NCBI GenBank assembly: GCA_016748015.1
Contig: JAAOMT010000612.1
Span: forward strand, 1 to 37,386
Origin: Geosiphon pyriformis uo1
Lineage: Eukaryota; Fungi; Glomeromycota
DNA: 37,386 bases
Reading direction: 5' to 3'
This document shows, piece by piece, positions 5,191-36,073 of this stretch. A program made the position numbers and the translations under genes. The first letter of the stretch is position 1; the number at the start of each line of letters is the position of its first letter. Under the pieces are notes generated by a model. The model ran no database searches and had not been told where the DNA came from. It saw only the letters and a list, made by a program, of their open reading frames with translations.

Positions 5191-6043
5191 TGTTACTTAT
5201 AGAATATAGGAAAGATACTAACATAAATTAGCCAATCAAAAGTAGGCACAGTAAATATGAAATTCCAAATTTTTTTTTAAAAGAATTGCAGAATTCCAGG
5301 AATTTCAGAATTCTCATACATGAATTACAGGATTCCAGAATTCCAGGATTCCTCTCAAAAGAAATTGCAAAATTCCAGGAATTTCAGAATTTTTGGTGTG
5401 AAAAATTAAGAAATTGAGAAATCTCAATTATGTATATATAGTAATAGCATTAGAAGTAAAAAAAACAGATCTTCCAGTTAGATTTCATCTAAGCAACCTT
5501 CCAATTCACAAATATCAATAAATAATTATTTGCTATCTCAATCTACTCTCCACTATCAACACTTCATGTTGATAGTAATTGATACTTAACCATGCTAGAA
5601 CAATAGCTCTTGATCATGGCTATTGATGGGATACTAACTTGCAATTGCTTTTACTTATTTCTTTATTTTCTTTTATTTTTTTGTATTTCTTTTGTTATTT
5701 CTTTGGTTTTACTAAATTGATTAAGGATTAAGTGCTGAGATACAGATATTATAGGAACTGGTAAAAGACCCATAAAACAAGGGTAGAACACTCATAGATT
5801 TGAGGATAGCTTATCAGAAGAATTACCAGTTACCATGCTGAGAAAAAAATTTGACGAAACTGTGGTTTCAGGAAGCTACAGATAAAACCATCAATTAAAA
5901 TCTCTGTCCATTATACAAAGAACTTCACAACAAAACCTTTAAATAAACCACACCTGCAGATATTATCAATGTCAACAAATCAATTAAGCACCAAGTTATG
6001 GGTTTGTTATTTGTTTTGAAACCCCAAATAATCACCTGTAATA
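5191..6043 (+). repeat. E1 5' LTR
   Basis: Colinear with 14282-15134. TATA-like TATATATA at 5433-5440, AATAAA at 5517-5522, hairpin at 5552-5576. Confidence 0.97.
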
Positions 6044-6045
6044 TT

Positions 6046-6061
6046 TAGTGCTCTCTGTGAG
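6046..6061 (+). promoter_or_regulatory. E1 primer binding site (TaGTGCTCTCTGTGAG)
   Basis: Lies 2 nt after the LTR and matches the E3 PBS TGGTaCTCTCTGTGAA. The consensus TGGTGCTCTCTGTGA is complementary to a tRNA CCA end; the tRNA is not identified. Confidence 0.8.
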
Positions 6062-6105
6062 ATATAATTCTACAGAGAACCAGTATCAACAGCAATTATC
6101 TAAAA

Positions 6106-9100
6106 GTGGCAGAATCAAAAAAGATAGGAGCAAACCATTTAGGATTTGCTAAATTCTTGTTCCAACAATACAGCCAATAATTAGAACTAAACAATAACCA
6201 CTTTCTAGCAGAATTCATCTTTAACTTCTACATTAACAATAAAATCACAGACTGCTTAGGAAAAACAGTTAACATTGAATCTGCAAGGGAAAATTTCTAT
6301 ACAGAATTATTTCAACATACCAGCTTACCAAGAAACTACAGTTTCACATCAAATCATCAGAGAAATTAATCAAACTATTGAAAGATATAAACAACAACAA
6401 TTCCCCATTACCTATGCAAACAAAGGCAAAGGAAAGTTACAAACACCAGCAGTAACACCAAAACAAATACAACTATCTACTTGGAAGAAAACTAGAGTTG
6501 AATCACCAACAAACTCATTATACCATTATACATCCGGAAGCACCATCAACATCCCATCAACAAGCACATCCACATTACACACAACATCAACATTTGGACA
6601 ACTCCTATTTCAAAGTAAACAAAAGAAAGCAGAATTATTAGGAACCTACAGTAATTATTTTAAAGAATTTAAATTGTAATCATTAACACCATTAGAATTC
6701 TGATCACTATTACCTTAACCAGATTTTGGAAACACAAGTCCCTGGGAGATAATGGAATCAAAAGAGAAAAAAAAAGAAGAAACTGAAGATCAGGAATTTA
6801 CTTATCAGAACTTGATTACAGTAAATCCAGAAATTGAAACCCCAAATATTCAAATCCAGCAAACTCCGAATAATCTAAACCCTGAGTTAATTAATCAGGG
6901 AAACTTACCTTCAGTAATCATGATCAATCAGCCACCAATTGTACCAATACTGGAACCAATTCCACTACAACCACTGCAGCAACCTATTTAATCACTGCTC
7001 CAACAACTACAACAACTGATTCAACCATCACAACAACAACTTCAACAACCACTACAACAATAAATTATAGCACCAATGGCATATATTTCTATTGCCAAAC
7101 TTGAAAAATTTACCAGCAAAGAGAATGATGCCCAAGTGTGGCTAAACGATATGGAAAAAGCCATCACAGCCAATGAATGAGATGATACTAGAGCCATGCA
7201 GGCCATTCCCTATTTTCTTTAAGATATTGCCAATTCATGGTATTAAAGCTTGGTTAACAAATCCCAAGATTTCAATGCATTCAAACTTGTATTCCTACAA
7301 TACTTTAGCAATAATAATAGTATTAATTGGCTAGTAAACACTTTTACTACTATCAAACAAGAGAAAAATGAAGCAGTCACTACATACTTAGGATGCTTTC
7401 ATAGAAATCTACACCAAATACAAGCAACTCAAGCTGATTATTTTACAGCACCACAAATCCTAAATCAATTCATCAGAAGCCTGCACAATAGCATCCTCCA
7501 ATGCATATGCTCAATGCATCCAGCAGATCTTTAAGTTGCAGTTACCAATGTCAGAAATTTTGAAGCAGCTGAACTCGAAGCTAACCATGCCTAAGCCATA
7601 AATCTAGTAATGAATAGATCATCTGAATTGGATTCCAAATTGAAACAATTCAATAATTTCATTAACCAGAAGCTTGAAAAGTACTTAGCTGACAATCATG
7701 CAATTTATTAACCACCCCAATGACACAATAATTTAGGAATCACAAATCACCCACAAAATCAGTTACATTCCTCATCATCATCCAATCAGTCATGGCAGCA
7801 AGAGACATATATTTGCCACTACTGTGGTAAACAAGGACATTTGAGAATTGATTATCAGTTAAGAATAAAAAACCAATGATCAGAAAATCAATATTGAAAC
7901 CCCAATTACAGGTTTTCAACTCTGAGTTATCAATCAAATACAAAAATATATCAACCAAATTACATACCTATGACACAGCTGCAAATTTATCAACCACCAA
8001 TTTATCAGCCAACAGCACTCATCATTTATCACTCACAGCCCCAACTCATTTATCAGCTGCAGCCTCAGGTAATTTATTAGCCCTAATAAATTCAAACACT
8101 GCTGCAGAACTTATCTCAAAACAGAACACAAGGCCAAGACTGACACAACAAAGCTGGAGATCATTGATGATAGTCTATCAACCAATCTCCAGTTCCATGG
8201 CACAATCATCAGGATCTTAACAATGGAATTTGAACACTGAGAACTCTCAAAACCCAAATGTCCAACACTATTTAAGTCTTCTAGTTACCTTAAAAAACGC
8301 CTCATCTAACAACTGGGAACTCAACCAACACAAACCACTTATCAGCAATATACTTCCAGCCACCATAACCAATAACGAATCATTAGCCACAATTTTTCTA
8401 TTTGAATTAAAAAAAATCACACCAGTTCCATTATTCAGTAGAGCTGGTCTTGACATCAAACCAATCATCACTATGTACACTAATGCAAAGGTTGATGGTC
8501 ATACCATTAAACTGATATTAGACAGTGGATCAACTAATAGCATCATTACATGACAACTCATAAACCAATTAGATTGCCAAGTTGATTACACTGCTAGCAC
8601 TCACATAATCACCACTGATGGGGCAACCAAAACTCCTATTGGCAAAATTAATGACTTTCTTTTTGAAGTTAATGGCATCATCATCCCCATCAAAGTCCTA
8701 GTGATGAAAGCAATTCAATATTAGACATTAGTAAGAAATGACTGGTTATCTAAAACCAATATCATACTTAACTAAACAATACAGGAGTTCTAACTCAGCC
8801 AAAATAACCAACACACATGAGTATCTGTCATGTGTGAACACTTCAAATCTATCACCATGTCATTAAACCCATTTATCAAATTTGAAGAAGAAAAAGAGAA
8901 ACCTATTTGGAAAGCCTATCAAGTCTCTTGGGCCAATGAAGACCACAATGAGCTGCCACCAATACTTTCTTGAGATGATAATGAAAAAGAGAAGAAAAAG
9001 AAAAAACTTATCTGAAGTACCAACCAAGCCTGGGAAATTGACAATAACCAGAAAGAACTAATAAATTAGGAGTGAAAAGAAAATAAAAAGAGAAAAGGAA

Positions 9101-12100
9101 AGAAGAAGGAAGAAGAACCAACACCTAACAGTACCACTACTTATAATTTCTACACTACACCCCAACAATCCACTTATTGCTGCCCAAAACTGGTATGCAT
9201 TGATTGTGACAAGAAATTGTCGTCAATGGGCACTTGTTGTAATGATGATAAGGAGTACACTTCAGCAACCAAATTCTACTGCTGTTCATGTGTTATTAAA
9301 TACTTCAGAAGACCAAAACAAGTTGAGAAATGGGACAATAAACTATGCTTGGCTTGTAGAAAAACTCTTTCAGATGAAGGAATGTGGAACAACATTCCTA
9401 GATGAGGAAGAACATACAATGAAATATGCCAGTATACAATTCTAATCAATGACTGGGTATGCAAGAACACATTAATCGATGACACTTAGAAACAAGCATT
9501 GTGACAATTGAAAGAATATCCCCATGACAAACATGAACTTTGGAGAATAGCATATGTGAAAACAGAAAGTGCAACAACTAGCAAACTCCTAGAAATCAAA
9601 AACAACCTTCTGTTTCTTTCTGAACCCGAATATGTCCAAACCTTCAACATCTTTGGCAACATTGAAGATGACCCAGAAGAATTCCATGAACATTACCAGC
9701 ATTTAGCACCCACTAGGGAAGAACAGAAGCAGCAGTTAGAACAATTGAATACTCAATTATGTCAACATTGCTTAATCCCATGTGACTTTCAATATTGTAA
9801 TAAGTGTGACTTCATTTACAATCCACCAACATGCATGATCTACATGATCCCAGAAGAAAACAAACCAATCAGCAACTGGGTATTGGAATCAGAATCAATT
9901 TTCAATCCTGATTCAAACTCCAACAACAATGACGATGACAAAAATAATGGTTCTAGCTCTGTGCAAAATGGCAACAATTTTAACTCAGATTCAAACTCCA
10001 ATTCAAAACCCAAACAATATATTGCACTTCCTAACTTTACCAAGGAACAAAAAACTTAAATGGTTTAGCGATAATAGTGAGGGTATCATACCAGAACATG
10101 CACATGATACTGATGTAGAGTTTGATCTAAGATATCCAGGAAAAGATGTCATAAAATTGGAACTCTATTTGTGCACCTGTATTAATCTCAAAATAGCATT
10201 AAAAATTCTAGTGACAACAATGGTTCAGTTAGCATTTAAGAGTAGCTTAGCAAAAAAGAGAATCAACATTAAAGGAGAAATAATTGATATAGGATACATA
10301 GGAAATATTATTGCTATGCTACAAAATGACTCAGAAAAAGCATATACTATAGATTCAAATGAAAAAATAGCATAGGCAATATTTTTATCTTTGGTAAAAA
10401 TAGCTCAGTTAGTGTCAATAGAAAACAGGGAAGAATTAGGAATTACTGTTAGAGGGATACAGGGATTCAGATCAATGGATAGAATAGATGTATCAGTTAA
10501 TATAACAGAAAAAGAGGTTATTGACAAAGAAGAAATTATCTCAATCTGTTAATCAATTTCTATTCCATCATATGACCAGTATATGTTAACCATAAAAAAA
10601 AAAGTAAAGAATCAAGCTCAGTTGTTTAAAGCAGAAGCCACTCTTTGTGAATCAGGAAAAATTGGACTCACTAATCTTTACATATCAGCCAAAAGCCCCA
10701 AAAACATCAAAATTCTTATCTACAACACAACAGGAAGTGTTATTGAAATACAAAAGGAAACCATTATTGGATATTTAACCACCAAAGTTGAGGATCAACT
10801 ACCAAACCACATTCCAGATTTTTCACAGCTTTGCAGATATGTGGACATTACATCACAAACTATCTATAAACAAAGTAAATATTATCTGCTCTAACCAGAA
10901 CAATTGAAACAAATAAACATGGGAAATCTAGACCCACTCCAACAGGTGCCAACTCAAGATATTACTTAACAATTTAAATAATATCTTTGCCAGTAAAAAT
11001 GAACTTGGCAGAACTAATATAATTCAGCACCAGATTAAGACTGGAGATACAATGCCAATAAAACAAAGAGCATATAGAGTACCACTAGCTAGTCATAAGA
11101 TTATTCATCAAGAAATCAATCAGATGCTTGACAACAGGCTAATTCAGTTATCAATGAGTCTATGGTCATTACCAGTGGTACTAGTCTGGAAAAAAAATAG
11201 AAAGATCCATTTCTGTGTGGATTATTGAAAACTAATGAAATAACCAAAGATGATAGCTATCCAACTCCAAAAATCCAAGAACTATTTAATGCTTTTAGAG
11301 GAAATAAATGGTTCTCAATACTGGATTTAGATAGTAATTATTGGCAAGTAACCATGGATCTAGCTGACAAAAAAAAACAGCATTTATTACAAGAGAAGAA
11401 AATTTCGAATTTGAAGTCATGTCATTTGGATTAATGAATACACCAGCCACATTCTAACAGCTAATAGAAATTGTGTACACTAGACTACTATGGAAGTCAG
11501 TAATCATATACTTGAATGACACCAATGTGTTCTCAAGAACATTCAATAATCATTTTCACCATCTACAACAAGTATTTGAAAGACTCAGACAAGCAAGACT
11601 GAAACTAAATGCCAATAAATGCTTCTTTGGAAAAACAGAACTAAAGTTCTTGGGACATGTTGTGAGCAAAGACAACATCAAAACAGATTCAGACAAGATT
11701 GAAGTTGTTAAGAACTTTCCAGTACCAAACAATCTTACTGAACTAAGAACATTCTTGGAATTTGCAAGGTATTATTGCTGTTTTATCAAAGACTTTTCTA
11801 AACTGGCTCAGCCATTTTATCATTTACAAACTAAAAATGTAAAGTATAAATAAACAGGAGTTCAACAAGAAGCATTTGACACACTGAGAAGAAAGCTTAT
11901 TTAAGCTCTAGTGTTGATGTATCCAGATCACAACAAACCATTTATTATCACTACTGATGCATCAGGCCAAGCATTGAGAGCAGTATTATCTTAGAAAAGA
12001 CCAAACAGACGAGAACATCTAGTAGTGTATGCCAGTAGAAGCTTAAGTCCAGCTGAAAAAAACTATGGAATACTAGCATTAGAACACTTAGCAATTTATT

Positions 12101-12312
12101 GAACAGTCATAAAATGGAAAAAATACCTGAATCAAAAATTTAAAATATATATGGATTACAAAAGATTGATTTTAATCCAGAAGCAAAAATTCGGAGATGA
12201 TTGCCATGCCAAATAGAAAATAGAACTTTCACTATTTAATTATATAGTACATTATAAAAAAGGAAAAAACAATGGAAATGCTGGCAGATTGTTGTGAATA
12301 AGACAAATCTAA
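6106..12312 (+). pseudogene. gag-pol: E1 ORF1 polyprotein (N-extension, Gag CA, CCHC, protease, Cys-rich domain, dUTPase, RT, RNase H), disrupted
   Basis: CA MAYISIAKLEKF at 7076; knuckle CHYCGKQGHLRIDY ~7814; LILDSG ~8512; dUTPase ~10060-10490; YLND (from YLDD) 11509-11520; RNase H TDAS ~11953. Many transition-derived stops and some frameshifts. Confidence 0.93.
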
Positions 12313-12342
12313 AAACATTTCAACCCAAAAATATAACAAAAG

Positions 12343-13568
12343 ATGAATATACAAAAATACCAACAACTCCAATATTATATAAATACCCAATTGTTCAAGG
12401 AAAAATTATCTCAAAAAGAACAAAACAACATAAAACAGCAATCAAACCATTTTATCAACTATCAAAATATACTTTATCAGAAGAACAAAAAAAATCCAGA
12501 CCAACCAACCAGAGAAAGAGACAATATTATTCAACATACACTTAGACTCAACAGCAGGACATTTTCATAAAGAAGCAATCATAGAAAAAACCAGAAAAAG
12601 ATACTATTGGCCATCAATATATCCAGACATCATCCAATATGTTCAAAGTTGTGATGCTTGTCAAAAAAGAGGTGGAACAAAACCCAGTAAACCATTGAGA
12701 CCAATCAAAGTGGGACAACTATTCAACTATATTAGAATTGACTTAGTCGGACTATTAACAATCACCAGCAGAGGCAACAGATATATTGCAATAGCCATGA
12801 ATTATCTTACAAAATAGCCAGAAGCAAAAACCATTCAAAGAGCAGATGCAGAATCCATTGCCAAATTCATCCATTAAGAGTTGATCTGTCGACATGGATG
12901 TCCAAAAGAACTACTATCAGATTAAGGAACCCACTTTGTGAACAGAACATTGACAGAATTGAGTCAAAGATTTGGAATTAAAAAACCATTGTCATTACCA
13001 TATTATCTACAAACCAATGGATTAGTAGAAAGATTCAATAGAATACTGTGTAAAGCAATTACCAGTTAAGATAAAAGTCATTATTTATCCAACAGAACCA
13101 ATAACTGAAGACAATTTTCAGGAAACATTGCTAAAAAAAACATATGACTTAATGAAAACACTAGAAAACAAATGGTGAAAAGCAGCTGATAACATCCAAA
13201 AGTCACAAGAAAAACAAAAAAAAAGACATGATAATCAACTATTAGACAAACCAGTTGAATTCAAGATTGAAGATAAAGTACTTTTACATCATACCAAAGC
13301 AGAAAAACAATGGAGTGGAAAATTTAATCCCAAATGGGATGGACTATTTTATATAAAAAAAATTCTTGGAAATAGAGCTTATAAATTAAAATGGGACAAC
13401 AAAATCTTAACCAAAGCAGCACATGATGATCAACTAAAACTATATCACCATATAATATCACTATCTACCAGTAATATTCCACAATTAGAAGTATAGAGAA
13501 TACTAGTACAACCAGATAAGATTTCACAAGATCTGAAACCAATTATCATCATTAGACCAAACACGTAA
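12343..13568 (+). pseudogene. int: E1 integrase as a separate ORF (HHCC, DDE, GPY/F; no chromodomain), disrupted, with an internal deletion near 13060
   Basis: ATG at 12343 (MNIQKYQQL); GHFH..CDACQ; IDLVG; SD*GTHF; QTNGLVERFN; WDGLFY. Confidence 0.9.
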
Positions 13569-13598
13569 AATTGAACAATAAAAAGAGTATATAAAGAC

Positions 13599-14267
13599 AT
13601 GGTAAACATGACGGAAGACTTCAGAAAAATGAAAATTACCGACAACATTTACTTACTAGCACAACAACTCTTTCAATTGATTCAACAACAAGAAATGGAA
13701 ATCACAATCAATCAACAAACTATCAAATACACAAACACCAGAAAAAGACCCTGGGATAAAGTATGGAGGAAAACAGAAAACACTGTTAACAAAATAATGG
13801 CAAAAATGAAACTGGTAATAGAAACACAACCCAAAGTTATTCAATATCAAAAGTTGAATATAGAAACCTGGAATTGGTGAACACAACAATTTCCAAGAAA
13901 CTTTTGTTACTTTTACTTGAAACAATATGTAAATATTCAGAATCTATATACAGATAAAACAAAATAATTATTTAACACAACAATACTACAACAACTGGAA
14001 CAATTTGTGAAGAAAAACAATTTAATTACACAAGCAAGAGCTATTTATTGGCTATATACCAGATTTCAAGATCGGCCAGAAATCTTGCTTAACACTAAAA
14101 TGAATACTGTTACTGTCAACCAAATAGAAAAATTGACCAACACCCAATTTGAAGAATTACAAAACAAAATAACACAAATAATTTTCAGAAAAAAAGTTCA
14201 AGAACTATTTAAGAATGGAGAATTAGAGCTAGAAAATTTGAGAGATCTCAATGGAGCTCAATATTAA
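13599..14267 (+). pseudogene. E1 ORF3, ~220-aa accessory protein of unknown function
   Basis: Track ORFs 13599-13880 and 14007-14267 share one frame, split by two stops. Homologous to ORF3 of E3 and E2. Confidence 0.8.
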
Positions 14268-14278
14268 AAAAGAAGAAA
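14266..14278 (+). promoter_or_regulatory. E1 polypurine tract
   Basis: AAAAAAGAAGAAA ending 3 nt before the 3' LTR. Confidence 0.8.
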
Positions 14279-14281
14279 TAA

Positions 14282-15134
14282 TGTTACTCATAGAATATAA
14301 GAAAGATATTAGCATAAATTAGCCAATTAGAAGTAGGCACAATAAATGTAGAATTCCAGAATTCCTTTTAGAGAAATTGCAGAATTCCAAAAATTTCAGG
14401 ATTCTTATACATGAATTACAGGATTCCAGAATTCCAGAATTTTTCTCAAAAGAAATTGCAGGATTCCAGAAATTCCAAGATTTTTGGTGTGAAGAATTGA
14501 GGAATTGAGGAATCTCAATTATGTATATATAGTGGTAGTATTAAAAGTAGAAAAAACAGACCTTCCAGTTAGATTTTATCTAAGCAACCTTCCAATTCAC
14601 AAATATCAATAAATAATTATTTACTATCTCAATCCACTCTTCATTATTAACACTTTATGTTGATAGTAATTGATACTTAACCACACTGGAACAATAGCTC
14701 TTGATTATGACTATTGATGGGATATTAACTTGCAATTGCTTTTACTTATTTCTTTATTTTCTTTTATTTTTTTGTATTTTTTTTGTTATTTTTTTGGTTT
14801 TACTAAATTGATTAAGGATTAAGCACTAAGATACAAACATCATAGGGACTGGTAAAAGACCTGTAAAACAAAGGTAGAACACTCATAGATTTGAGAATAG
14901 CTTACCAGAAGGATTACCAGTTACCATGCTGAGAAAAAAATTTGACGAAACTGTGGTTTCAGGAAGCTACAGATAAAATCATCAATTAAAATCTCTGTCT
15001 ATTATACAAAGAACTCTGCAACAAAACCTTCAGATAAATCACACCTGCAGATATTATCAATGTCAACAAATCAATTAAGCACCAAGTTACGGGTTTGTTA
15101 TTTGCTTTGAAACCTCAAATAATCACCTGTAATA
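14282..15134 (+). repeat. E1 3' LTR
   Basis: 853-bp copy of 5191-6043, differing almost only by transitions. Confidence 0.97.
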
Positions 15135-16392: not shown

Positions 16393-17359
16393 TGTTACCA
16401 GTAGAATTTTAGCTATTAATTAACATGAAATTACCCTTATAATTCCTATAATTAATCAGTATATTAATCATTTCAAATTATTATTTATTATTTAATTAAT
16501 TATTACATATCACGATTCAATTAAAATAATCTAATTAGTATAACAGAAAGTAGGATGATTAAATTACACAATACTCTGAACTTTGTAACATTCTAAAAAT
16601 TCGCCAAAATTTACAGAAATTCGCCGAAATTATAAATAGTTCACCCAAATTAATCAATAGTTTAGCAAAATAACTTGTAGTTCATCAAAATGTATCTTTA
16701 ATTCACCGAAAATTGAGCAAAAAGAAAAAGTGCAAGTTCATAGACTAGTACTACAACAAATTGTATAAAAGAAGAGCTTTTTTCTTCAAGAAAATATATC
16801 TTACTTTAGATTTTATCACTAGAACCATTCCTATACACACAAAAAGAAATAAATATCAAATAATTCGAAAAACCAAATTCTTTAATTATTACATTTGAAA
16901 AATTCCCAAAACCCAATTAACATTTCGAAATTGATTAGCTAGCAATTTCAGTAAACTGTTAGTGACTCCAGGCCTGGATAGAAAACGTTTCCCTTGACAG
17001 AATTCTATTTCTTTTACATTTCTTTTATTTTCTAGTATTTTTTTATTACAATCATTAGAGTAGCCTACAGACAAAATTCCTGTAGAAGAGTTGACTTTCA
17101 CAGCAAAGTAACTACACATTTTTAGTGAGCTTCCAGATGAGCAATTCCTGAGAAAGAGTTGACATTTACTACAATGTAACTACATAAAGTAACTGGCAAG
17201 AAATTGGTCATTCCACTTATAAGCCCAGCAGTTCAAATTATAAAAGATAATTTGAAGATAAATTCAGTTATTGGGTTCAACTACTTTTAGAAAACGTGAA
17301 TTTGCAACCAACAGACAGTTACAATATTCAAGAAAAGAGACCAAAAACCTCTGGTAACA
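16393..17359 (+). repeat. E2 5' LTR
   Basis: 9-bp terminal inverted repeat. TATAAAA at 16764-16770, AATAAA at 16848-16853. Confidence 0.98.
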
Positions 17360-17361
17360 TT

Positions 17362-17372
17362 TGGTGCTATCT
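17362..17372 (+). promoter_or_regulatory. E2 primer binding site (TGGTGCTATCT)
   Basis: TGG lies 2 nt after the LTR. One transition from TGGTGCCATCT, which as I recall complements the yeast tRNA-His 3' end; assignment tentative. Confidence 0.75.
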
Positions 17373-17404
17373 TACAAAAATAACACAGCAACAACAAATT
17401 CAAA

Positions 17405-20400
17405 GTGGTGACCACACCAGATGCAACAACTCTAGAGTATTACCAGTCAATTTACACCCACTGCAAGCAAAGATTCAACATCCCAGACGGAATTGAAGTC
17501 ATCAAGAAATCAGTATACCAATATATTAAAAATCGCATCAACAATTATCTCTTTGGAAATTACAACATCTCAGAAGTTAGAGGCAACTTTTACAATAATT
17601 TAATGCACTATTTACAGTTGAGAACTGAAGACCTTAACAATGAAACACTTGTCACTTACTTTCAAAAACTTAATTTTAACATTATCAAGTACTGTGAAGA
17701 AACATATCCAGTACAATCTCAATATTTTATTGATTTTGAATCAGAAACACAAACAAACAACAAAGACAAACAGAAATTGAAGCAATACTCAAGAACCACC
17801 CCAAATACTCCAATACTACCAAAAACAACTGCCAAACACTTGCAAACACCTAAACAAAAAACCAGTGTTAAATTACCACTTTTTATTACACCAATTCTAA
17901 TTTCACTTGTTCAACCACAAATACCAAGTTCACCACTTAAATGTTTCTCCAGACCAGAAGATTATCAGTCACCTAGAAATCCTACTCAACAGCAGGAACC
18001 AATATCAACAAGTGCCAATATTATTGATTACTTACAAGAAAACGAAAGTAATTATTCAGAAAGTCCAGAAAGTGAAGAAACTGAATCAGAACAAGAAGAA
18101 ACTACAGAAAACGAAAAAGTAATGGCAACTGCTTATATTGCAAAAATTCCAGAATTTACTGGTGAAGATAATGATACCAGTCCTCAAGAATGGCTTGACA
18201 AAGTTCAAAAAGCAGGAGATGCAAATAGTTGGATTGCAACAAAAATGCTCAAAGCAATCTCATATTTTCTCCAAGGAACTGTAGGAGAATAGTTTGAAAA
18301 CTTAGAAGAACCATTTGAAAACTGGCAAGCATTTAAAGATGCTTTTCTACAACAATTCACCAACAACAACACTTCTATCACTCTTAGAAACCGCTTTCGC
18401 AATATCAAGCAAGAAACATCTGAAACTGTTATGACCTATCTTGGAAGATTCAACAAACTTCTCAGACGAATTCAACAATTGGAAACCAATGACTACTATT
18501 CCAATGCTCAAATTCTGGATCAGTTTATAGCAGGGTTAAAAGACAAACTGATTAAAAAAGTCTGTCCACATGCTCTAGCAGACTTAGCAACTGCTATTAA
18601 ACATGCAAAGAATTATGAAATAGCTATGGAAGAAGCAAACCACACCAAACTTGTTAACTTAGCTATTGAAGAAACCAGCTCAGCAGCTGAAAAAAAGATA
18701 GACCAACTCACAAAAAAGGTTGAAAGCTATTTTACAAACCAGCAACAACAGCAACAACAACCACAAAAATATCAATCACCACAGCGATACAACCAAAACA
18801 ACTTTGGACCACCATCCAACCACCAACCTCAAAATTGTCACTATTGTGGAATTCCAGAACACTGGAAACGAGATTGTAGGAAACTACAAAGAGACCAACA
18901 AAACAGGAGTAATCAACGTCACTCTTCATCACAACAATTTTATTACCAATCCCTACCACCAACTTATTATTCACCAAGACCACAAATTCAAAACAGCTAT
19001 TATCAACCAGTTCCACAACCAATTCAACAACAATATCAGCAACTTTTACCAATTCAGCAATATCAGACACCATCCACTCAACAATATCAAGTACCAGCAA
19101 AAAGATTGGTTCACCATAACCAATTCACACCTCAAAATCAATTTCAGAATAACAACAACAGAATTAATCCAAATAACCAGTTGGTTTCCCAAAATTCTGG
19201 TCAGCAAAGACCCAATCACTATCACACTTAACCCAGTTATCTTACAATGCTGGAAGATTCAGATTTTCAACAAACTGCACTTTTTTTTTTTTTTTTTTCA
19301 ACACCAAGATCAAACCCTTTCAATCACACCATTCCACCAGCTCAAATTGCCCAAAATGCCAATCTGTCAGATATATTTCCATTTGAATTTAAGGCAAATG
19401 AATCACCATTCTTGCTTAGTAACACAGCAGTCAATGAACAAAAAGCAATCACTGCTATGTACATAGAAGCTACAGTAGAAGGAAAATCTATTTACTTAAT
19501 CCTAGATAGTGGATTTGCTGGAAGCATTATCACTTACCAGTTGATACAACAACTTAAACGAAATGTAGACAGACCAGCTCAAACAGTTATTGTCACCGCT
19601 AATGATATAAAAAAGACTCCAGTAGAAGAAATTAATGATTTCCTCTTTACAATTGATGGAATTACCATTCCAGTTAAAGTTTTTGTCATGGATGCACCCC
19701 AATACTAAGCCCTAGTTGGAAATGATTGGCTTCTCAAGGCCAATGCAAACCTGAACTGGATAACTCAAGAACTTAAAATCTCATACCAAAGACAATATAA
19801 CATAGTACTTGCAATCTGTGGTACCTTTAATAAATGATCAGAAAAAGCTCCAGTATTTAAATTTGAAGAAGGAAAGGAAATGCCACTTACTGAAACCTAC
19901 ATAGCTCTTGGATCACCATCTAATTGGGCTGAGGAAACAGAACAAGAGATTTTTGAAGAATCAAGAGAATGAAAGAAAGTTAGATATTCCACACCAGAAC
20001 CACGAAAAAAACCACCATACATTCCACTAAAATACAAAGATTGCAAAAAGAAGCTTTCATCTATGGGAGCTTGTATTTCTCCAGAAGAGGAATACGAAAC
20101 TCGCACTTGCTACTTCTACAAGGCATGCCATAGAGAACGATTTGGATCCCCAAAGAGAAGTGAAAAATGGGACAACACACTTTGTTTTACATGTGGAGAT
20201 ATGTTACCAGAAGAATGCAACTGGATTGATGTTGCAATGAGAGGAAGAGTATGTGATTAAACTTGTCAATATGCTCTATTAATTTCGGAAAAAGTGAGAA
20301 GAGGAACACCATTTGATGCAGCATACAACAGTGCTCTCAACAAACTATACCATTACTCACATGATGCTGAAATGATTTTTAACTTAGCAATGGCTTTAAT

Positions 20401-23046
20401 TAATGGAGCCACCCAGGAAGATGTCCACTAAATGAAGATGTCCACCAAATGAAAGAAGCTGAATATATTGAGTATACCATGGAACTAGCCAGATTTGATT
20501 ATGAAGATGAAGTAGAAACCTATTACCAAATTGCAAGCCACACATATCTGACCAAAGAAGCTCAAATTCAACGATTAGAGCAAATGAACATTCAATTGTG
20601 TAAAGAATGTGTTATGCCTTGTGATGACCAATGGTGTTTAGAATATTATGCTCTTAACATTCTTTTGCCAGATGAAAATGATGAAAATAAAATCGAATTT
20701 GGAGTATCTGAATTAGCAGAAGAACTACCAACCACTTCCATCTATCTTCTTGAAAAGCAACCACTTCTACAACTTAAATATTTTGACAACCATGGCCAAG
20801 GAATCAGACCAGAAAAAGCACACGAAATTGATGCCGGATATGACCTAAAATATCCAGGAAAAAATACTTTGGTTTTCCAACCAAAGTCCTTGACAAAAAT
20901 CAATCTCAAAATTGCTCTTGAAATACCACCAGGAGCAATGGTTCAAATTGCCTCCAGATCATCATTGGCAAGTAAAAAAATTAATATTAAAGGAGGAGTT
21001 ATAGATACAAGATACACTAGAGACATTATCATTATGTTACAAAATAAGACAGACAAATCATTTAAAATTGAACATGCTGAAAAAATTGCTCAAGCAATTT
21101 ACTTACCTTTAATCAACATTTCGGGTTTACAATCAGTAAACAACAGAGAACAATTGGGAAAAAGTAAAAGAGGAACTCAAGGTTTTGGTTCAACTGGACA
21201 ATTTACAGTTCCAGTAAATATAGCTCTTAATACACAAAATAAATCTCACCAGATTCTTCAACTTCTCCAGCCAATCACCATTTCACCTTTTGGAAAACAT
21301 TACGAAATTTACACTTGCTCAAAACCCACCACTACACAACAAATCTTTGAATTCAACGAACAAATCTGTTTGAAGCATGAAATCTCAATTCCAAACATTT
21401 ATATTCCCAAAGGAATAAAAAAATTTCGAGTTATATTTTACAACCCTAATAATTACCCTATTGTCTTATTAAACAAATTAGAAATTGGAATCATACACAG
21501 CAATATTTTTCAAGATAAAAACCCTCAAATTGTTTCTAATTTCATCGAAATTGTAAAGCACACTTTACTCCCAAATCCAAATATTATTCCCACTACTGAA
21601 AACTACCACTTTCTGGAAGAAAAACTCTCTCGAATTAACATGGTCCCTTAGAACCTCAACAACAAAGACAATTAAAACAATTAATAGCTGAATTTGCAGA
21701 TATATTTGCAAAAGACAACAATGACCTGGGAAAAACGGATATTGTTCAACATCAGATCCATACAGGAGATGCTCCTCCAAAATGTTAGCAAGCTTACAGA
21801 GTGCCACCAGCCAGCCACCAATTCATCAGAGAAGAAGTCCAGAGAATGCTTAATAATGGATTAATTCAACCATCAAGAAGTCTTTGGGCCTCACCAGTAG
21901 TCCTTATCAAAAAAAAAAAATAGAAAAATCAGATTTTGTGTTGACTATTGCCAACTGAACAGTATAACAATTGGAGATGCCTACCCTCTTCCAAGAATTG
22001 ATGACATGTTAGATGCTTTAGGAAAAGCCAAGTTTTTCTCAACTTTGGACTTAGAAAGTGGATACTGACAAGTCGAAATGGACCCAAAAGACCGACCCAA
22101 AACAGCATTTATTACCCAGGAAGAAAACTATGAGTTCAATGTTATGCCTTTTGGACTCTGCAATGCACCAGCAACATTCCAGCGACTCATGAATGTTGTA
22201 TATGAAGGACTCTTGTAGCAATCAGTAGTTGTCTATCTTGATGACACCAATATATACTCACTAAACTTTGAGACTCATCTTATTTACCTGTGAGAAGTTT
22301 TTCAATGATTATGGAAAGCAGGATTGAAGTTAAACATTGAAAAATGTTACTTTGGAAAAACAAGCTTAATCTTCTTCGGACACATTGTTAGCAAAAATAG
22401 AGTCAAACCAAATTCTGGAACAATCAGTGCTATCAAAAACTTTTAAACTTTCAGAAATACCACAGAACTACGAAGATTTGTAGGATTAGCCTCTTATTAT
22501 CGAAAATTTATAAAAGAATTCTCAAAAATTGCCAAACCATTCAATTATCTTACCAATAAAAACGTGCCATACAAATGGACTGAAGAACAACAAAAAGCTT
22601 TTGAAACTCTCAAAACAAAATTGACAACAGCCCCAGTTCTTGCTTACCCAGACTTCAACAAACAGTTTCAATTAGCCACTAATGCTTCACACATAGCATT
22701 TGGTGCTATCTTATCACAATTGAATGAAAATGGCCAGGAACGAGTTATTGTCTATGCCAGCAGAACACTTAAACCAACAGAACTCAAATATGGCTCAATT
22801 GAATTGGAAGCCACTGCAGTTATCTGGGCTCTTAAACATTTTCAACAATATCTGAAGAATAGAAAAGAATTTGACATAATAACAGACAACATTGGTCTCA
22901 AATGGCTCAATAAAAAGAAAACTGAACAAAGCGCCAAACAGTCTTGATGGAATGACTTCCTAGCAGACTACAGATACATTGTACACTACAAACCAGAAAA
23001 ACTACATACCAATGTTGATAGCCTCTCAAGAATGAGACAATATTAA
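17405..23046 (+). pseudogene. gag-pol: E2 ORF1 polyprotein (N-extension, Gag CA, CCHC, protease, Cys-rich domain, dUTPase, RT, RNase H), disrupted
   Basis: CA MATAYIAKIPEF at 18122; CHYCGIPEHWKRDC 18836-18877; LILDSG ~19496; YLDD 22234-22245; RNase H ends ...DSLSRMRQY*. Gag through dUTPase is one frame once the 17-bp duplication at 20417-20450 is removed. Confidence 0.95.
20770..21198 (+). CDS. dut: dUTPase domain within E2 ORF1 (homotrimeric type)
   Basis: All five motifs in order: DAGYDL, ASRSSLA, GGVIDTRYT, IAQAI, RGTQGFGSTG. Confidence 0.93.
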
Positions 23047-23113
23047 TACCAACATCAACACCAATAAAACACCAACAAACTTAATAGCAGAACAAACAAC
23101 AAAACTAACAACA

Positions 23114-24499
23114 ATAGATTCAAAAAACTACAACAACATCAAAAACTATTTGGAGACCCTCACCATGCCAGAAAATTGGTCTCCAAGTGAAAAACATCGA
23201 TTACAATACCAATCCAAACAATATTTTATACACCACAACAAAATCTATTACAAAAATTGTAAAAATCCAAACCAATTATTCAGATTAGTACAGCAAAATG
23301 AAAAAAAAACAATTTTATATAACATGCACACAGATCTGTCTTCAGCACACTTGAGAAGAGATGGAACAATTTAAAGAACTCTTGAACATTATTTTTGGCC
23401 TCACATGCAAAAAGACATTCGACAATATATAGAATCTTATAATAGTTGTTAAAAAAGAGAAGGAATTCGCCTCACAGAACCATTAAATTCAATCAAAGTT
23501 GGACAACCTTTTGACAGAGTTGGAATTGATTTGGTCGGACCATTATCTATCACAACCCAAAGAAATTGCTATATTGCAGTAGCAGTAGATTATCTTACCA
23601 AATGACCTGAAGCTAGAGCCATCCCAAGAGCGGATGCAAAATCAGTAGCAAATTTCATTTATGAAGACATTATTTGTAGACATGGATGCCCAATTGAACT
23701 TTTATCTGATCAAGAAACACATTTTGTGAACAACTTGATACAAGAAATTTGTAAACAATTCAATGTCAAAAGACCTCTATCATCATCTTATCACCCTCAA
23801 ACAAATGGACTTATAGAACATTTCAATAGAACATTGTGTAAATTTCTAGCCAAAGTTTCAACAGACTTTGAGCAGGAATGGGATATCTTTATTCCATTAG
23901 TGTTACTAGCATACAGAACACTAAAACAAGATACTACAAAACACACACCATTTGATCTTACTTATGGAAGGACAGCAATATTATCAATTAATTTCACAGT
24001 GGAAACATACCCAGTACAACCAATCAATGAAGAAAACTTTCAAGAAACACTCCAAAGAAGAGTCTACACTCTTCTCAGTACACTAGAAGAAAAAAGAAGA
24101 ATAGCAGTGACTCACATTGAACATTCTCAAGCTCAACAAAAAGAAAGACATGACAACAAATTACCACTCATTATAAACGAATTTAAAGTTGGAAATAAAG
24201 TTCTCTTACACAGAACTAAGGCTGAAAAACAATGAAGTGGGAAATTTGAAAACAAATGGGATGGACCATTTTATATTCACGAAATTCTAGACAATGGATC
24301 ATACAAGTTAAAACTTGATGACAAAATACTAGCAAAAGTTGCACATGGGGACAGATTGAAACACTATCATTCCAGAAACAATCTTGAACCATTAATTCCA
24401 CAAATTGGTACATATTTCCCTTTAATTAATCCTGAAGACATTCCCTGAAATTTAGAACTAATAATTATAATAGAACAACAACCAAACTTGAACACTTAA
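23114..24499 (+). pseudogene. int: E2 integrase as a separate ORF (HHCC, DDE, GPY/F; no chromodomain)
   Basis: (M)DSKNYNNIKNYLET, with ATA at the position of the E1 ATG; GIDLVG; SDQETHF; HPQTNGLIE; WDGPFYI. Single frame to TAA at 24497. Confidence 0.92.
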
Positions 24500-24642
24500 A
24501 TTTTACAATAATTCTCTAATAAAAACACAAAAACAAAAATAGTAAATAATTACAGAAACACCCAAACCCAAAAACAAATAAAAACCCCATATCCAAAAAT
24601 AATTTTCTTTATTTTCTCTTTTCATAATTAGTCAATTTTATC

Positions 24643-25318
24643 ATGGTTATTTCCCGAAATATTCAACAAATATCCCAAAAGTTAATGTTAGCCTTGAAAA
24701 CACTTCCTGACTTATTCATAATGATTAATGGAAGTCAAATTAATTACATTCAGAAAGAAACCACAGCTCCAGTAGCAAATCATTCACAGAACTATCACCC
24801 CTATAAAAGAAAAACAAGAAGCCACTCTGAAAATAGGTTACCAAGACTTTTGAAACAAGCACTAGAAAAAAATCTTTTAATTGCCCCTATGGACATTCAC
24901 CAAATGCTACAATGCAACAAAAACTTCTACTACTTCTTAACAAACAAAACAATGAATACACCCCTATCTATAAATATTTTCACATTGAAAAGACACTTTA
25001 TGAACGAAAACTGGAACTTGAAACAACAAATATCACTCCTGAAGCTATACAAAAACAAATTCATAATAAATTCAAAACAGCAGCTGGACTAATGAACACT
25101 CACTACAAACTTAGAGCAGCTTTTAGACTCTATGATTTGTTTAATACTTGTGAAAATGTTTTACAGAATCCAATACTGTATCCAATGAAAGTTTAATACA
25201 TTGGCAAACTCACAGAACTGAAATTTTAACAATTCTCAGACCAGATTACGTCAATTATTTTGGATCACTATCTTAATATTACAGATAGTGCTTGGACTTT
25301 GATGGAGCTCAGTCTTGA
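24643..25318 (+). pseudogene. E2 ORF3, accessory protein of unknown function (frameshifted)
   Basis: Track ORFs 24643-25092 and 24912-25196. RAAFRLYDLF...IGKLTELKF aligns with E1 RAIYWLYTRF...IEKLTNTQF. Ends DFDGAQS*. Confidence 0.75.
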
Positions 25319-25326
25319 GAAGAAGA
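25317..25326 (+). promoter_or_regulatory. E2 polypurine tract
   Basis: GAGAAGAAGA ending 3 nt before the 3' LTR. Confidence 0.75.
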
Positions 25327-25329
25327 TTA

Positions 25330-26319
25330 TGTTACCAGTAGAATTTTAGCTATTAATTAACATGAAATTACCTTTATAATTCCTATAATTAATCAGTATA
25401 TTAATCATTTCAAATTATCATTTATTATTTAATCAATTATTACATATCACGATTCAATTAAAATAATCTAATTAGTATAACAGAAAGTAGGATGATCAAA
25501 TTACACAATACTCTGAACTTTGTAACATTCTAAAAATTCGCCGAAATTTACAGAAATTCGCCGAAATTTATAAGAAATTCGCCGAAATTATGAATAGTTC
25601 ACCCAAATTAATCAATAGTTTAGCAAAATAACTTGTAGTTCATCAAAATGTATCTTTAGTTCACCGAAAATTGAGCAAAAAGAAAAAGTGCAAGTTCATA
25701 AACTAGTACTACAACAAGTTATATAAAAGAAGAGCTTTTTTCTTCAAGAAAATATATCTTACTTTAGATTTTATCACTAGAACCATTCCTACATACACAA
25801 AAAGAAATAAATATCAAATAATTCGAAAAACCAAATTTTTTAATTATTACATTTGAAAAATTCCCAAAACCCAACTAACATTTCGAAATTGATTAGCTAC
25901 CAATTTCAGTAAACTGTTAGTGACTCCAGGTCTGGATAGAAAACGTTTCCCTTGACAGAATTCTATTTCTTTTACATTTTTTTTATTTTCTGGTATTTTT
26001 TTATTACAATCATTAGGGTAGCCTACAGACAAAATTCCTGTAGAAGAGTTGACTTTTACAGCAAAGTAACTACACATTTTTAGTGAGTTTCTAGATGAGC
26101 AATTTCTGAGAAAAAGTTGACATTTACTACAACATAACTACATAAAGTAACTGGCAAGGAATTGGCCATTCCACTTATAAACCCAGCAGTTCAAATTATA
26201 GGAGATAATTTGAAGATAAATTCAGTTATTAGAGGTTCAACTACTTCTAGAAAACATGAATTTGCAACCAACAGACAGTTACAATATTCAAGAAAAGAGA
26301 CCAAAAACCTCCAATAACA
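25330..26319 (+). repeat. E2 3' LTR
   Basis: Copy of 16393-17359 with one extra ~21-bp tandem unit and a 2-bp indel. Confidence 0.98.
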
Positions 26320-26667: not shown

Positions 26668-27593
26668 TGTTACAGGTGATTCTTTGGGTATTGAGTGAAT
26701 AACAAACCCATAACTTGGTGCTTAAAGCAATGGGTGATGATGATAATCTGAAGGTATTTTATCTGAAGGTTTTCCAATTGAGTTTTTTGTATAATATACA
26801 GAGATTCAATGATAACAGTTTATCAGTAGTTTCTTGAAACTATAGTTTTGTCAATTGTTTGCTCAGCTTAATGGTTGATGATTCTTCTGATATGATATCT
26901 TTTGTAAGTGTATACCAGTACTGTTTCCTAATGTTAGTTCCTCTGTAAGTTCTCCAAGAGTAAATATTGTTTAAGCAAGTTTATTCCTCTGTAAGTTCTC
27001 CAAGAATAAGTATTGTTTAAGTAAGTTTTATTCCTCTGTAAGTCCTCCAAGAGTAAATCCTTTAATCAAGTTAGTAGACAACAAAGAAAATAAAGAAAAG
27101 ATAAAAGAGAAAATAAGAAATAAGCCAAGGCAATTTGCAAGTTAGTATCCTGTCAATAGTCATGATCAAGAGCTATTGTTCCAGTATAGTTAAGTATTAG
27201 TTACTATCAACATGAAGTGTTAATAGTGAAGAATAAATTTGATATAATGAATAATTATTTATTTGAGGATTGTGGTAACTAAGCTAAAAATTCTTGGTGT
27301 CTTTTTTTTTTTTCTGCTTTTAACACTACTGCTATATATACATATTTGAGATTCCTTAATTTTTCAATTCTTTGTGATAGGAATTCTGGAATTCTTGGAA
27401 TTCTGCAATTCCTGATGAGAAAAATCCTGGAATTCTGGAATCTTGCGATTCTTTGTTAGAAAATTCTGAAATTCCTGGAATCCTGCAATTCTTCTGAGAA
27501 GAATTCTGAAATTTTACATTTACTACGTCTATTTCTGATTGGCTAATATCTACTTGCTAATAATAATATACTTCCTATATTCTATGAGTAACA
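26668..27593 (-). repeat. E3 3' LTR
   Basis: TGTTAC...GTAACA ends; copy of 36074-36999. Confidence 0.97.
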
Positions 27594-27596
27594 TTA

Positions 27597-27608
27597 TTCC
27601 CTCTTTTT
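27597..27608 (-). promoter_or_regulatory. E3 polypurine tract
   Basis: AAAAAGAGGGAA on the minus strand, ending 3 nt before the LTR. Confidence 0.85.
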
Positions 27609-28266
27609 AATATTGAGCTCTATCGAAATCTAACTCTTTTAATTCCCTCTCTTGAATTATTTCTTGAACTTCTTTTTCGAGTATTACTTGTGTTATTTGA
27701 GTTTGTAGTTCTTCAAATTGGGCATTGGTCATTTTTCTTAATTGATTACTCGTAACTGTATCTATTGCTGTGTTAAGTAAGATTTCTGGTCAGTCTTAAA
27801 ATCCCATATATAGCCAGTAAATGGCTTAAGCTTGTGTGATCAGATTGTTCTTTCCCACAAATTGTTTCAATTGTCTTAGTATTGTTGTGTCAAATAACCA
27901 TTTTGTTTTGTTGGTGTACAAATTCTGGATATTTACATATTGTTCCAAGTAAAAATGACAATAGTTTTTCAGAAATTGTTGCATCCACCAAGTCCAAGTT
28001 TCTCCAATAAGTTCTTGGTGTAATTTGACTATTTGTTGTTCTTTCATGGCCAATTTTACCTTGGTCATGATTTTATTAACAACATTTTCAAGTTTTCTCT
28101 GTACTTTGTGTTGTGGTATTCTTGCAGTACTTTTGTATCGAATAGTTTGTTGATTGATTGTAATTTCTATCTTCTGGTGTTGGATTAATTGAAAGATTTG
28201 TTGTGCTAATAAATGGATGTTGTCGGTAATTTTTATTTTTCTGCGTTTTTCTATCATGTCAACTAT
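27607..28266 (-). pseudogene. E3 ORF3, accessory protein of unknown function
   Basis: Track ORF 27826-28257 continues in frame through stops to ...ELDFDRAQY*. Clearly homologous to E1 ORF3. Confidence 0.8.
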
Positions 28267-28290
28267 GTCTTTATATATTCTTTCTGTTGA

Positions 28291-29673
28291 TCAATTGGAT
28301 GTGTTGTTATTAATGATGATAATTGGTTCTAGATCTCATAGAATCTTATCTGGTTGGACTAGTATTCTCTGTACTCTCAGTTGTAAAATATTACTGGTAG
28401 ATGATGATACTATATGGTGGTATGATTTCAGTCGATCTCCATGTGCTTCTTTGGTCAAGATTTTGTTATTTAATCTTAATTTGTAAGCTTCATTTCCTAG
28501 AATTTCTTCTATGTGAAATGGTCCATCCTATTTGGGGTCAAATTTTCCACTCCATTGTTTTTCTGCTTTGGTACAATGTAATAGTACTTTGTCTCCAATC
28601 TTGAGTTCAACTGGTTTATTTGGTAGTTGGTTATCATGTCTTTCTTTTTGTTTTCCTTGTGACTTTTGTATGTTATTAGCTGCTCTCTGTTATTTGTTTT
28701 TTAATGTTTCTATTAAGTCATATGTTCTTTTCAACAATGTGTTTTTGAAATTCTCTTCTGTTATTGGTTTGGTTGGGTATTTGCTGACTTTTATTTTCAC
28801 TGGTAATGTTGCTGTTCTACCATATACTAATTCAAATGATGTTGCTTGTATAGTATCTTGCTTCATTGTTCGATAAGCAAATAGTACTAATAATATCAAC
28901 AAATCCCAATCGTTTTGGTTTTCTTGGCTGAGCTTAGCTATTGCTTTACACAATGTTTTGTTGAATCTTTCGACTAATCTATTGGTTTGTGAATGGTATG
29001 GTAATGATAATGGTCTCTTAATTTCGAATCTTTGGCTCAATTCTGTTAATGTTCTGTTCACAAAATGTGTTCCTTGGTCTGATAATAATTCTTTTGGACA
29101 TCCATGTTGACAAATCGAATTCTGATGAATAAATTTGGCAATGGATTCTGCATCCACTCTTTGAATTGCTTTCACCTCTGGCCATTTAGTGAGATAGTTT
29201 ATGGCTATTGCTATGTATCTGTTTCCTCTGCTGGTGATTGTTAATGGTCTGACTAAATCAATTCCAATACAGTCGAATAATTGTCCTAATTTGATTGGTC
29301 CTAATGATTCACTGGGTTTTGTATCTCCTCTTCACTAACAAGCATCACAATTTTGAACATATTGGATAATGTTTGAATACATTGATGGCCAATAGTATCT
29401 TTTTCTGGTTCTTTTCATGGTTGCTTCTTTGTAAAAGTGTCTTGCTGTTAGATTTGAGTGCATGTTGAATAATATTGTCTTTTTTTCTGGCTCTGTAATT
29501 ACTCTGGTTGGTTGCTTTAGATCTCTTCTATTTTTCTGATAAAGTATATTTTGGTAAGTTATAAAATATTTTGATTGTTGTTTGATACTCTTTCGTTCCA
29601 TTTGAGATAAATTCTTCTTGAACTGTTAAGTGTTTATATAATGTTAAAGTTGTTGATATTTTTGTATGTTTAT
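28291..29673 (-). pseudogene. int: E3 integrase as a separate ORF
   Basis: (M)NIQKYQQL, with ATA at 29673; H..H..CDAC; SDQGTHF; ERFNKTL; *DGPFHI. Confidence 0.92.
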
Positions 29674-29735
29674 CTTTTGTTATATTTTTCATTGGTATTG
29701 TTCTGGTTTTGTTATATTTTTGGGTTGAAATGTTC

Positions 29736-35700: not shown

Positions 35701-36012
35701 TGCATAGGTAATGGGAAATTGTTGTTGCGTGTATTTTTTAATGGTTTGATTAATTTTTCTGATGATTGGGGCGAAACTGTGATTTCTTGGTAAGCTGGTG
35801 TGTTGAAATAATTCTGTATAGAAATTTTCTCTTGCTGACTCGATATTAACGGTTCTTTCTAAACAGTCTGTGATTTTATTGTTGACATAATAGTTAAAGG
35901 CTGATTTGGCTGGGTAGTGATTACTGTTTAATTCTAATTGTTGGCTGTATTGTTGAAACAAGGATTTTGCAAATCCTAAGTGGTTGGCTTCTATAATTTC
36001 TGATTCTGCCAC
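29736..36012 (-). pseudogene. gag-pol: E3 ORF1 polyprotein (N-extension, Gag, protease, Cys-rich domain, dUTPase, RT, RNase H), disrupted
   Basis: GTG at 36012; CA MVYTSIAKLENF at 34995; LILNSS (from DSG) ~33540; dUTPase DAGFDL..GGIIDTGY..FGSTG ~31570-31990; YLDD ~30533-30544; ends RIRQI*. Confidence 0.94.
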
Positions 36013-36055
36013 GTTTGAATAATGTTGTTGGTGCTGGTTCTCTGTAAAATTATAC

Positions 36056-36071
36056 TTCACAGAGAGTACCA
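36056..36071 (-). promoter_or_regulatory. E3 primer binding site
   Basis: TGGTACTCTCTGTGAA lying 2 nt inside the 5' LTR. Confidence 0.85.
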
Positions 36072-36073
36072 AA

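Follow-up and report, generated by a model that had tools for sequence, protein, structure and literature searches.

Probable GUG initiation of a long Gag upstream of a capsid AUG in decayed Ty3/Gypsy elements of Geosiphon pyriformis

Where does translation of Gag begin in an LTR retrotransposon whose gag frame has no ATG at its opening? The question is raised by contig JAAOMT010000612.1 of the fungus Geosiphon pyriformis. The window (the whole stretch of 37,386 nucleotides that was analysed) contains, by self-comparison, three full-length long terminal repeat (LTR) elements, E1, E2 and E3, all decayed; E1 and E3 belong to one family and E2 to a second (Table 1). A preliminary description of this DNA had proposed that long and short Gag isoforms are made by leaky scanning past a conserved GUG. 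We consider it likely, from the sequence evidence, that a GUG start makes long Gag and that leaky scanning to a capsid AUG makes short Gag, and highly probable that GUG initiation as such occurs. The observations that carry this reading are the GTG itself with A at −3 and G at +4, purifying selection on the codons that follow, a shortage of ATGs in and out of frame, and a capsid Met in both families. Copies of each family were studied through gene-model proteins (the best 120 of 310, 120 of 189 and 120 of 505 matches), and through contigs from one run, possibly the window's own sample, with comparisons weighted by depth and contig ends ignored.

All three copies carry GTG in strong context at the opening of the gag frame (6106, 17405 and 36012), at the coordinates and in the contexts previously given; in E1 a single frameshift, near 6348, lies between it and the capsid ATG. 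The start position is Val in 78 of 97 E2-family proteins (Met in 14, other residues in 5) and in 80 of 97 E1/E3-family proteins (Met in 10, other in 7), and 42 further proteins gave Val in 32, Met in 3 and Glu in 1, with 6 unmatched. The first residues of the E2 and E3 N-terminal domains align with each other, and GTG is the domain start in both families. Across E1 6072–6152, 475 contigs list no alternative letter at 2% or more at 6106–6108, with G>A rows at 6109 and 6112; contig depth on the leader is about 10-fold below that on the coding side. The E2 contig comparison comprises 40 of 219 difference rows and is uninformative on the E2 GTG. In 70 of 71 and 115 of 117 proteins, Val follows K, N, T or M, residues whose codons all begin with A (per-position entropies are skewed by the anchor pattern and were used solely for the residue preceding Val). 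Because the residue varies and yet its codons all start with A, it is the nucleotide at −3, and not the amino acid, that appears to be kept. A downstream enhancing hairpin, which lies ~14 nt after such codons and is helpful though unneeded, was not conserved (z −3.5, 0.9 and 0.2).

G>A decay had been argued to destroy GTG rather than create it, and the protein columns agree: their substitutions are mostly C>T and G>A, which turn GTG into ATG and not the reverse. Val (GTG) is probably the family state, with Met at the start likely over-counted in the gene models because gene callers favour ATG. Quick trees used only rows with at least 80% query cover and Val or Met at the start, which left 90 of 120 and 84 of 120; E2 and E3 were added to them. 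The 13 Met rows of the E2 family need 13 changes, against a mean of 12.4 for shuffled labels, and the Met share at the E2-family start (14/92) falls inside the G>A background (median 0.09, range 0–0.34). This pattern fits decay as the probable source of the Met copies.

The region between GTG and capsid behaves as coding sequence. Between E1 and E3, the nonsynonymous substitution rate divided by the synonymous one (dN/dS) is 0.14 and 0.24 for the N-terminal domain, 0.36 for the aligned first part of the linker and 0.09 for the capsid. E2 and E3 share 24% identity over 98 residues of the N-terminal domain (E 1e-8). Ratios far below 1, together with identity between families, indicate that the extension is a real coding region, and purifying selection on it implies that it was translated. 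An AlphaFold model of the E2 counterpart of the E1 domain has five helices across residues 7–100, with a predicted local distance difference test (pLDDT) score of 83. The domain has no Pfam match better than E 0.03, none among PDB sequences and no usable Atlas match, and Foldseek at E 0.001 matched its model to nothing in PDB or BFVD. VIA-align gave no Z of at least 8, and its best match (Z 6.8, root-mean-square deviation 4.8 over 111 residues) is in the range of common helical bundles and speaks neither for nor against a retroviral matrix fold; these blank searches prove neither a new fold nor absence outside Geosiphon. No signal or membrane segment was found in the domain, where the top 19-residue hydropathy is −0.02 in E2 and 0.46 in E3. 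As it lacks a hydrophobic signal segment, the extension is not a glycosylated Gag of the murine leukaemia virus (MLV) type.

The distance from GTG to capsid ATG is 970 nt in E1, 717 nt in E2 and 1017 nt in E3, and the earlier counts of 3, 4 and 4 ATGs in any frame between them are correct. Pooled, these 11 ATGs compare with 28.9 expected from dinucleotide shuffles and 30.3 from mononucleotide shuffles (z −4.6, the lowest of the 64 trinucleotides). ATG density is abnormal here. Past the capsid ATG, where the preliminary description had noted frequent ATGs, density is normal against dinucleotide shuffles: 48 vs 52.7 in the first 1 kb and 340 vs 351.6 in pol, neither depleted. Out of frame, the extension has 8 ATGs against 18.3 in codon shuffles (P = 0.002), with controls of 29 vs 27.3 in capsid and 70 vs 55.0 in pol. 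For these shuffles the E1 frame switch was placed at 6310 and the alignment puts it near 6348, leaving 12 codons off frame with no ATG among them. Since E1 and E3 share a family, the number of independent cases is two and not three; with one copy per family, the out-of-frame test gives P 0.004 (E1 + E2) and 0.04 (E2 + E3). In the E2 family, Met makes up 13 of 26,286 residues ahead of the capsid vs 118 of 5,303 inside it.

The ATGs that survive in the extension appear mostly to be decay products. No in-frame ATG is conserved, as had been stated: at the positions of the three that are in frame, Val, Ala or Thr prevails in the family proteins and Met is not a common residue. Three E2 out-of-frame ATGs are missing from 78%, 98% and 88% of contig depth. 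The five out-of-frame ATGs of E1 and E3, one of them common to both (6414 in E1, 35705 in E3), are NAT-G pairs, and at four of them the next residue has a high G>A share, a pattern that points to a CpG ancestor. NAT-G and NAC-G pairs stand at 7:6 in the extension vs 76:8 downstream (p 0.003).

The AUG-poor zone seems to extend back into the LTR, a point overlooked in the preliminary description. The 5' LTRs are themselves depleted of ATG (23 vs 39.4). In all three elements a TATA-like box lies 641–734 nt above GTG and is followed by AATAAA at a spacing of 77–84 nt, which would give E1 a 5' leader of ~640 nt and the elements a putative AUG-free run of 1.36–1.75 kb from TATA to capsid. The 5' LTRs hold 14 ATGs after the TATA-like box. 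Ten read ACG, ACA, ATA or CpG in the sister LTR, one was created by a 9-bp inversion, and two read Thr in family proteins, one of these also being ACG in a contig; 13 of the 14 thus trace to CpG decay or inversion, and the ATG at 5566 alone is unexplained. It is present in three of the four E1/E3 LTRs and inverted in the fourth. Compared with the three remaining LTRs, the E3 5' LTR (36616–36628, minus strand) has 9 bp turned round as a micro-inversion, flanked by short inverted arms. The absence of ATG between primer-binding site and GTG is true as claimed and not significant alone (0 vs 2.2 expected). The leader has a 1-nt indel between E1 and E3, and across copies it joins Val in three frames, 70/6/3 in the E1/E3 family and 17/13/3 in the E2 family. 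Followed upstream from GTG, the Gag frame meets a stop after 15, 7 and 21 codons in E1, E2 and E3, with no Met in between, and none of the three copies has an in-frame upstream ATG reading through the primer-binding site. The candidate at 17296/26257 in E2 is out of frame, as had been noted; where the 3' LTR has ACATG the 5' LTR has ACGTG, and an in-frame TGA overlaps the site. The candidate is a CpG decay product and no read-through start. In both families short tandem repeats precede the TATA-like box (5260–5400 with the matching parts of other E1/E3 LTRs, and 16600–16660), and the E3 LTRs hold a 46-bp repeat (26917–27028); these are possible enhancer arrays.

Downstream of this zone, a shared ATG opens the capsid in all three copies (7076, 18122 and 34995), as previously described. 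The capsid Met is kept in ~101 of 110 E2-family and 44 of 55 E1/E3-family proteins, the column of the E1 capsid ATG showing it in 43 of 51 family proteins, and it stands at the equivalent place in both families despite unlike linker lengths. Gag and protease share one frame in E2 and E3.

Table 1. Positions of the elements and of features around the gag start (Pfam and motif content in order; TSD, target-site duplication; RT, reverse transcriptase; uORF, upstream open reading frame)
Feature	Position	Strand	Remarks
E1	5191..15134	+	LTR pair 90.7% identical; 4-bp TSD TTAT/TCAT, one mismatch; motifs: gag, protease, dUTPase, RT, RNase H, integrase
E1 5' LTR	5191..6043	+	TATA-like box 5433, AATAAA 84 nt on; U3/R/U5 putative
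E1 LTR ATG, 7-codon uORF	5566..5589	+	weak context; GT at 5575; possible acceptor AG ends 6075
E1 primer-binding site	6046..6062	+	2 nt past LTR end; TGG-type start in all three copies
E1 A/C-rich leader, putatively non-coding	6063..6105	+	ends AAA
E1 GTG, putative long-Gag start	6106..6108	+	AAA-GTG-G; A at −3, G at +4
E1 N-terminal domain	6106..6415	+	~100 residues, predicted five helices; stop and frameshift in the E1 copy
E1 low-complexity linker	6416..7075	+	Met-poor; length differs between copies
E1 capsid ATG, putative short-Gag start	7076..7078	+	
E2	16393..26319	+	LTRs 93.9% identical; TSD GTGT; Pfam: gag, protease, dUTPase, RNase H, integrase
E2 GTG and extension	17405..18121	+	AAA-GTG-G; 239 codons, stop-free; in frame with capsid ATG
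E2 capsid ATG	18122..18124	+	
E3	26668..36999	-	LTRs 87.6% identical; TSD CCAT; Pfam domains
E3 GTG (36012) and extension	34996..36012	-	AAC-GTG-G; 339 codons, 7 stops; in frame with capsid ATG
E3 capsid ATG	34993..34995	-	

These features suggest how the two forms of Gag could have been made while the elements were active. Ribosomes would load at the cap near the TATA-like box and scan ~640 nt, and a minority would start at GUG and produce a long Gag with 240–340 extra residues. Most would pass GUG, meet no AUG for a further 0.7–1 kb and start at the capsid AUG, which would yield the bulk capsid–nucleocapsid–protease polyprotein. The weak GUG codon would set a low ratio of long to short Gag, and both forms would continue in frame into protease; long Gag is most likely a minor accessory component. 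Non-AUG starts are described as needing a −3 purine and a +4 G, as running at ~2–30%, and as leaking inevitably to the next AUG (PMC3542737). In yeast, start context is reported to matter mainly for non-AUG codons (PMC5666671), a rule that fits the strong GUG context and the weaker capsid AUG context seen here, and filamentous fungi are described as using conserved near-cognate starts with A−3/G+4 (PMC5487733).

Several observations weigh against this account. The family proteins come from automatic gene prediction on copies that are dead, and the transcription start is placed from motifs alone. Taken singly, the out-of-frame test is significant for E1 only (P 0.009; E2 0.13; E3 0.15). The E1/E3-family extension is richer in Met (89 of 28,601 residues), with one Thr column at 19%, and the CpG origin of the five out-of-frame ATGs of E1 and E3 is derived from protein columns, not DNA. 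A strong fold follows GUG in E1 only, the decayed copies limiting the hairpin test, and in E1 and E3 the base at −3 of the capsid AUG is C. The nine Met rows of the E1/E3 family cluster inside one clade (7 changes; 27 of 500 shuffles as low), which may reflect an AUG-starting sublineage within that family. Where the residue preceding these Met rows is visible it is Asn in four of four; Asn before GTG (AAC-GTG) puts a CpG, a decay hotspot, across the junction, and this would explain the clustering. The ATG at 5566, present in most E1/E3 LTRs and not traced to decay, comes with a GT donor and an AG acceptor in frame, and 70 of the 79 informative E1/E3-family proteins keep the leader frame of that splice, with leaders of 9 or 10 residues.

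These last points raise the possibility that splicing joins a short LTR exon, with the AUG at 5566, to the acceptor AG that ends at 6075, in which case Gag starts at AUG and Val is internal; gene model P0179 uses this joint. We think this unlikely, though it is the serious alternative. Of the three findings that the preliminary description named as fatal to leaky scanning, it is the one that stays in competition, for the E1/E3 family only; the upstream sequence and the ATG density have come out in that proposal's favour. E2 has two ATGs after its TATA-like box, both products of decay, and this second family, with no such exon, yet keeps GTG at the homologous place. Of the 79 E1/E3-family leaders nine stand in other frames, as does that of E3, and the E2-family leaders are split among frames. 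Four neighbouring CpG sites read TG in 9–11 of 16 cells, making a four-of-four change by decay at 5566 possible. Splicing would also leave the fixed GTG, the A at −3 and the downstream ATG shortage unexplained. It is improbable that GUG is the sole useful start, the capsid Met being kept as a protease cleavage site and AUGs being avoided against junk products or RNA decay. Protease could free the capsid from a polyprotein in one frame with gag, and E1 and E3 offer a weak −3 position at the capsid AUG. At the reported efficiencies of non-AUG starts, however, most ribosomes would reach the first AUG anyway (PMC3542737), context in yeast weighs mainly on non-AUG codons (PMC5666671), and the first AUG is the capsid start in both families despite differing linkers. 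Long Gag from GUG combined with short Gag from an internally started RNA or internal ribosome entry has precedents in Ty1 p22 and the Gag isoforms of human immunodeficiency virus type 2 (PMC5408680, PMC2831325), and we hold it to be distinctly improbable here. Neither the GUG-only model nor the internal-start model requires the AUG-poor stretch from TATA to capsid or the placement of the first AUG.

Ty1 Gag starts within the LTR and reads through the primer-binding site. A similar start at an LTR ATG, or active master copies with ATG in place of GTG, has a very slim chance of being correct for the Geosiphon elements. Other E2-family copies read Gln at the stop 8 codons above GTG, leaving a frame that crosses the primer-binding site, and Met occupies the start in 14 of 92 and 10 of 90 proteins. 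Set against this are the in-frame TGA at 17297 in both E2 LTRs, a TGA inside the E1 primer-binding site, and gene-model N-termini so heterogeneous that the commonest is found in 17 of 120 and 7 of 120; the E2-family Met rows are scattered on the tree, and substitutions in the protein columns are mostly C>T and G>A. That the ATG shortage is a by-product of composition, or the extension a non-coding leader, we consider nearly negligible. The region is A/C-rich and G-poor, CAT is also low in it (46 vs 69 expected), and the out-of-frame test does not reach significance for E2 or E3 by itself. The depletion nevertheless survives dinucleotide and codon shuffles, CAT is equally low in the capsid (60 vs 96.5) though ATG is normal there, and the contrast between NAT-G and NAC-G pairs opposes a compositional origin. 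A non-coding leader is ruled out by dN/dS far below 1.

In MLV, the AUG-initiated Gag opens with matrix; here, in contrast, AUG opens the capsid itself. The MLV glyco-Gag is otherwise similar in that a non-AUG start (CUG) lying upstream in the same frame extends Gag, the form begun at AUG serves as structural precursor, and leaky scanning links the two (PMC3542737). The present elements differ in using GUG, in being fungal LTR retrotransposons with no env seen, and in having a helical (predicted) extension of 240–340 residues with no hydrophobic segment. PEG10, a human gene derived from a retrotransposon, likewise makes a Gag-like protein from an upstream CUG and from AUG, and a PEG10 splice variant gives a further upstream AUG, parallel to the splicing alternative considered above; unlike the elements here, it is a domesticated host gene whose extension has 34 residues only (PMC2800197). 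CCDC8 belongs to the PNMA family, metaviral gag genes that have been domesticated; its conserved N-terminal domain is whole only if a CTG is taken as the start, and metaviral Gag N-terminal domains are described as highly variable and non-matrix (PMC10516033). CCDC8 is, however, a host gene with a predicted RNA-binding alpha/beta domain (PMC10516033), whereas the domain here is predicted to be all-helical and belongs to mobile elements. ORFs I–III of rice tungro bacilliform virus (RTBV) offer a further likeness, with a non-AUG first start, then ~895 nt without AUG and scanning to a downstream AUG; that plant pararetrovirus differs in its separate open reading frames (ORFs) and ribosome shunting (PMC3542737), and the Geosiphon elements have one frame and no uORF–hairpin shunt that we could see.

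By analogy, then, a GUG/AUG Gag in mobile fungal elements would resemble the known designs of MLV, RTBV, PEG10 and CCDC8. Gag starts at non-AUG codons are on record for a retrovirus (PMC3542737) and for domesticated gag genes (PMC2800197, PMC10516033); among the titles and abstract openings listed in searches of the open-access literature we found no report of one in a mobile LTR retrotransposon. A 'GUG' match in an S. osmophilus preprint proved to be telomerase RNA. A GUG kept across families that are 24% identical in the N-terminal domain would show the strategy to be old and selected in fungal retrotransposons, and the elements offer a clean test case for long-range scanning in fungi. Tentatively, and as a speculation more likely wrong than right, we suggest for a fungal Ty3/Gypsy lineage that a GUG/AUG switch doses an accessory domain, five-helix and outside any recognised family, so that only a small part of the Gag carries it, host start-codon stringency tuning particle make-up or copy-number control. 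On that reading, AUG-free genes ahead of the capsid would be a general design of fungal Metaviridae missed by ATG-based annotation. A practical consequence is that gene callers mis-model these elements, reporting pieces of Gag with invented first exons as 'hypothetical proteins'. Hundreds of Geosiphon 'hypothetical proteins' (P0001–P0283) are pieces of such elements, with heterogeneous first exons at decay-made ATGs, and inflate the gene count.

The assignment to Ty3/Gypsy follows from the Pfam domains and motifs and their order (gag, zinc knuckle, protease, dUTPase, RT, RNase H, integrase). Paired direct LTRs, 4-bp TSDs, a primer-binding site and a polypurine tract were all found. PF03732 is above cut-off in E2 and E3, with PF19259 and zf-CCHC just under it. 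By Pfam and motifs, pol runs protease, dUTPase, RT, RNase H, integrase; the same order of pol domains is described for PosPlaTy3-5, a fungal Gypsy element whose dUTPase likewise stands between protease and RT (PMC2864245). A Pfam scan of the ORFs at the integrase end gave no chromodomain match. Stops or frameshifts are present in E1, E2 and E3. DNA identity between E1 and E3 is 70–77%, and blastn listed no match between their family and that of E2. Homologs among the matches listed are all Geosiphon pyriformis gene models; two metagenome scans found no relative, and a phage search was also blank. Strong LTR expansion is reported for the family of Geosiphon (PMC11952901).

Within the window, in which no tRNA gene was found, the elements form a dense cluster of three separate insertions: E1 ends ~1.26 kb before E2, and 348 bp separate E2 and E3, which lie tail to tail. 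All three carry a long Cys-rich insert with several CxxC pairs between protease and dUTPase (9100–9900 and 19990–20700 on the plus strand, 33000–32300 on the minus strand), and a Pfam scan of E1 and E3 ORFs from this part brought no convincing match. A change of frame also falls between protease and dUTPase, at 20100–20450 (+) in E2 and ~33100–32900 (−) in E3 and less clearly in E1; it may be decay or a programmed shift. Near the start of the window, a duplicated sequence of 250–770 bp without a long ORF (15–1546 and 2362–3200) flanks runs of N at 1547–2361 and 3537–4464, possibly an effect of assembly or scaffolding.

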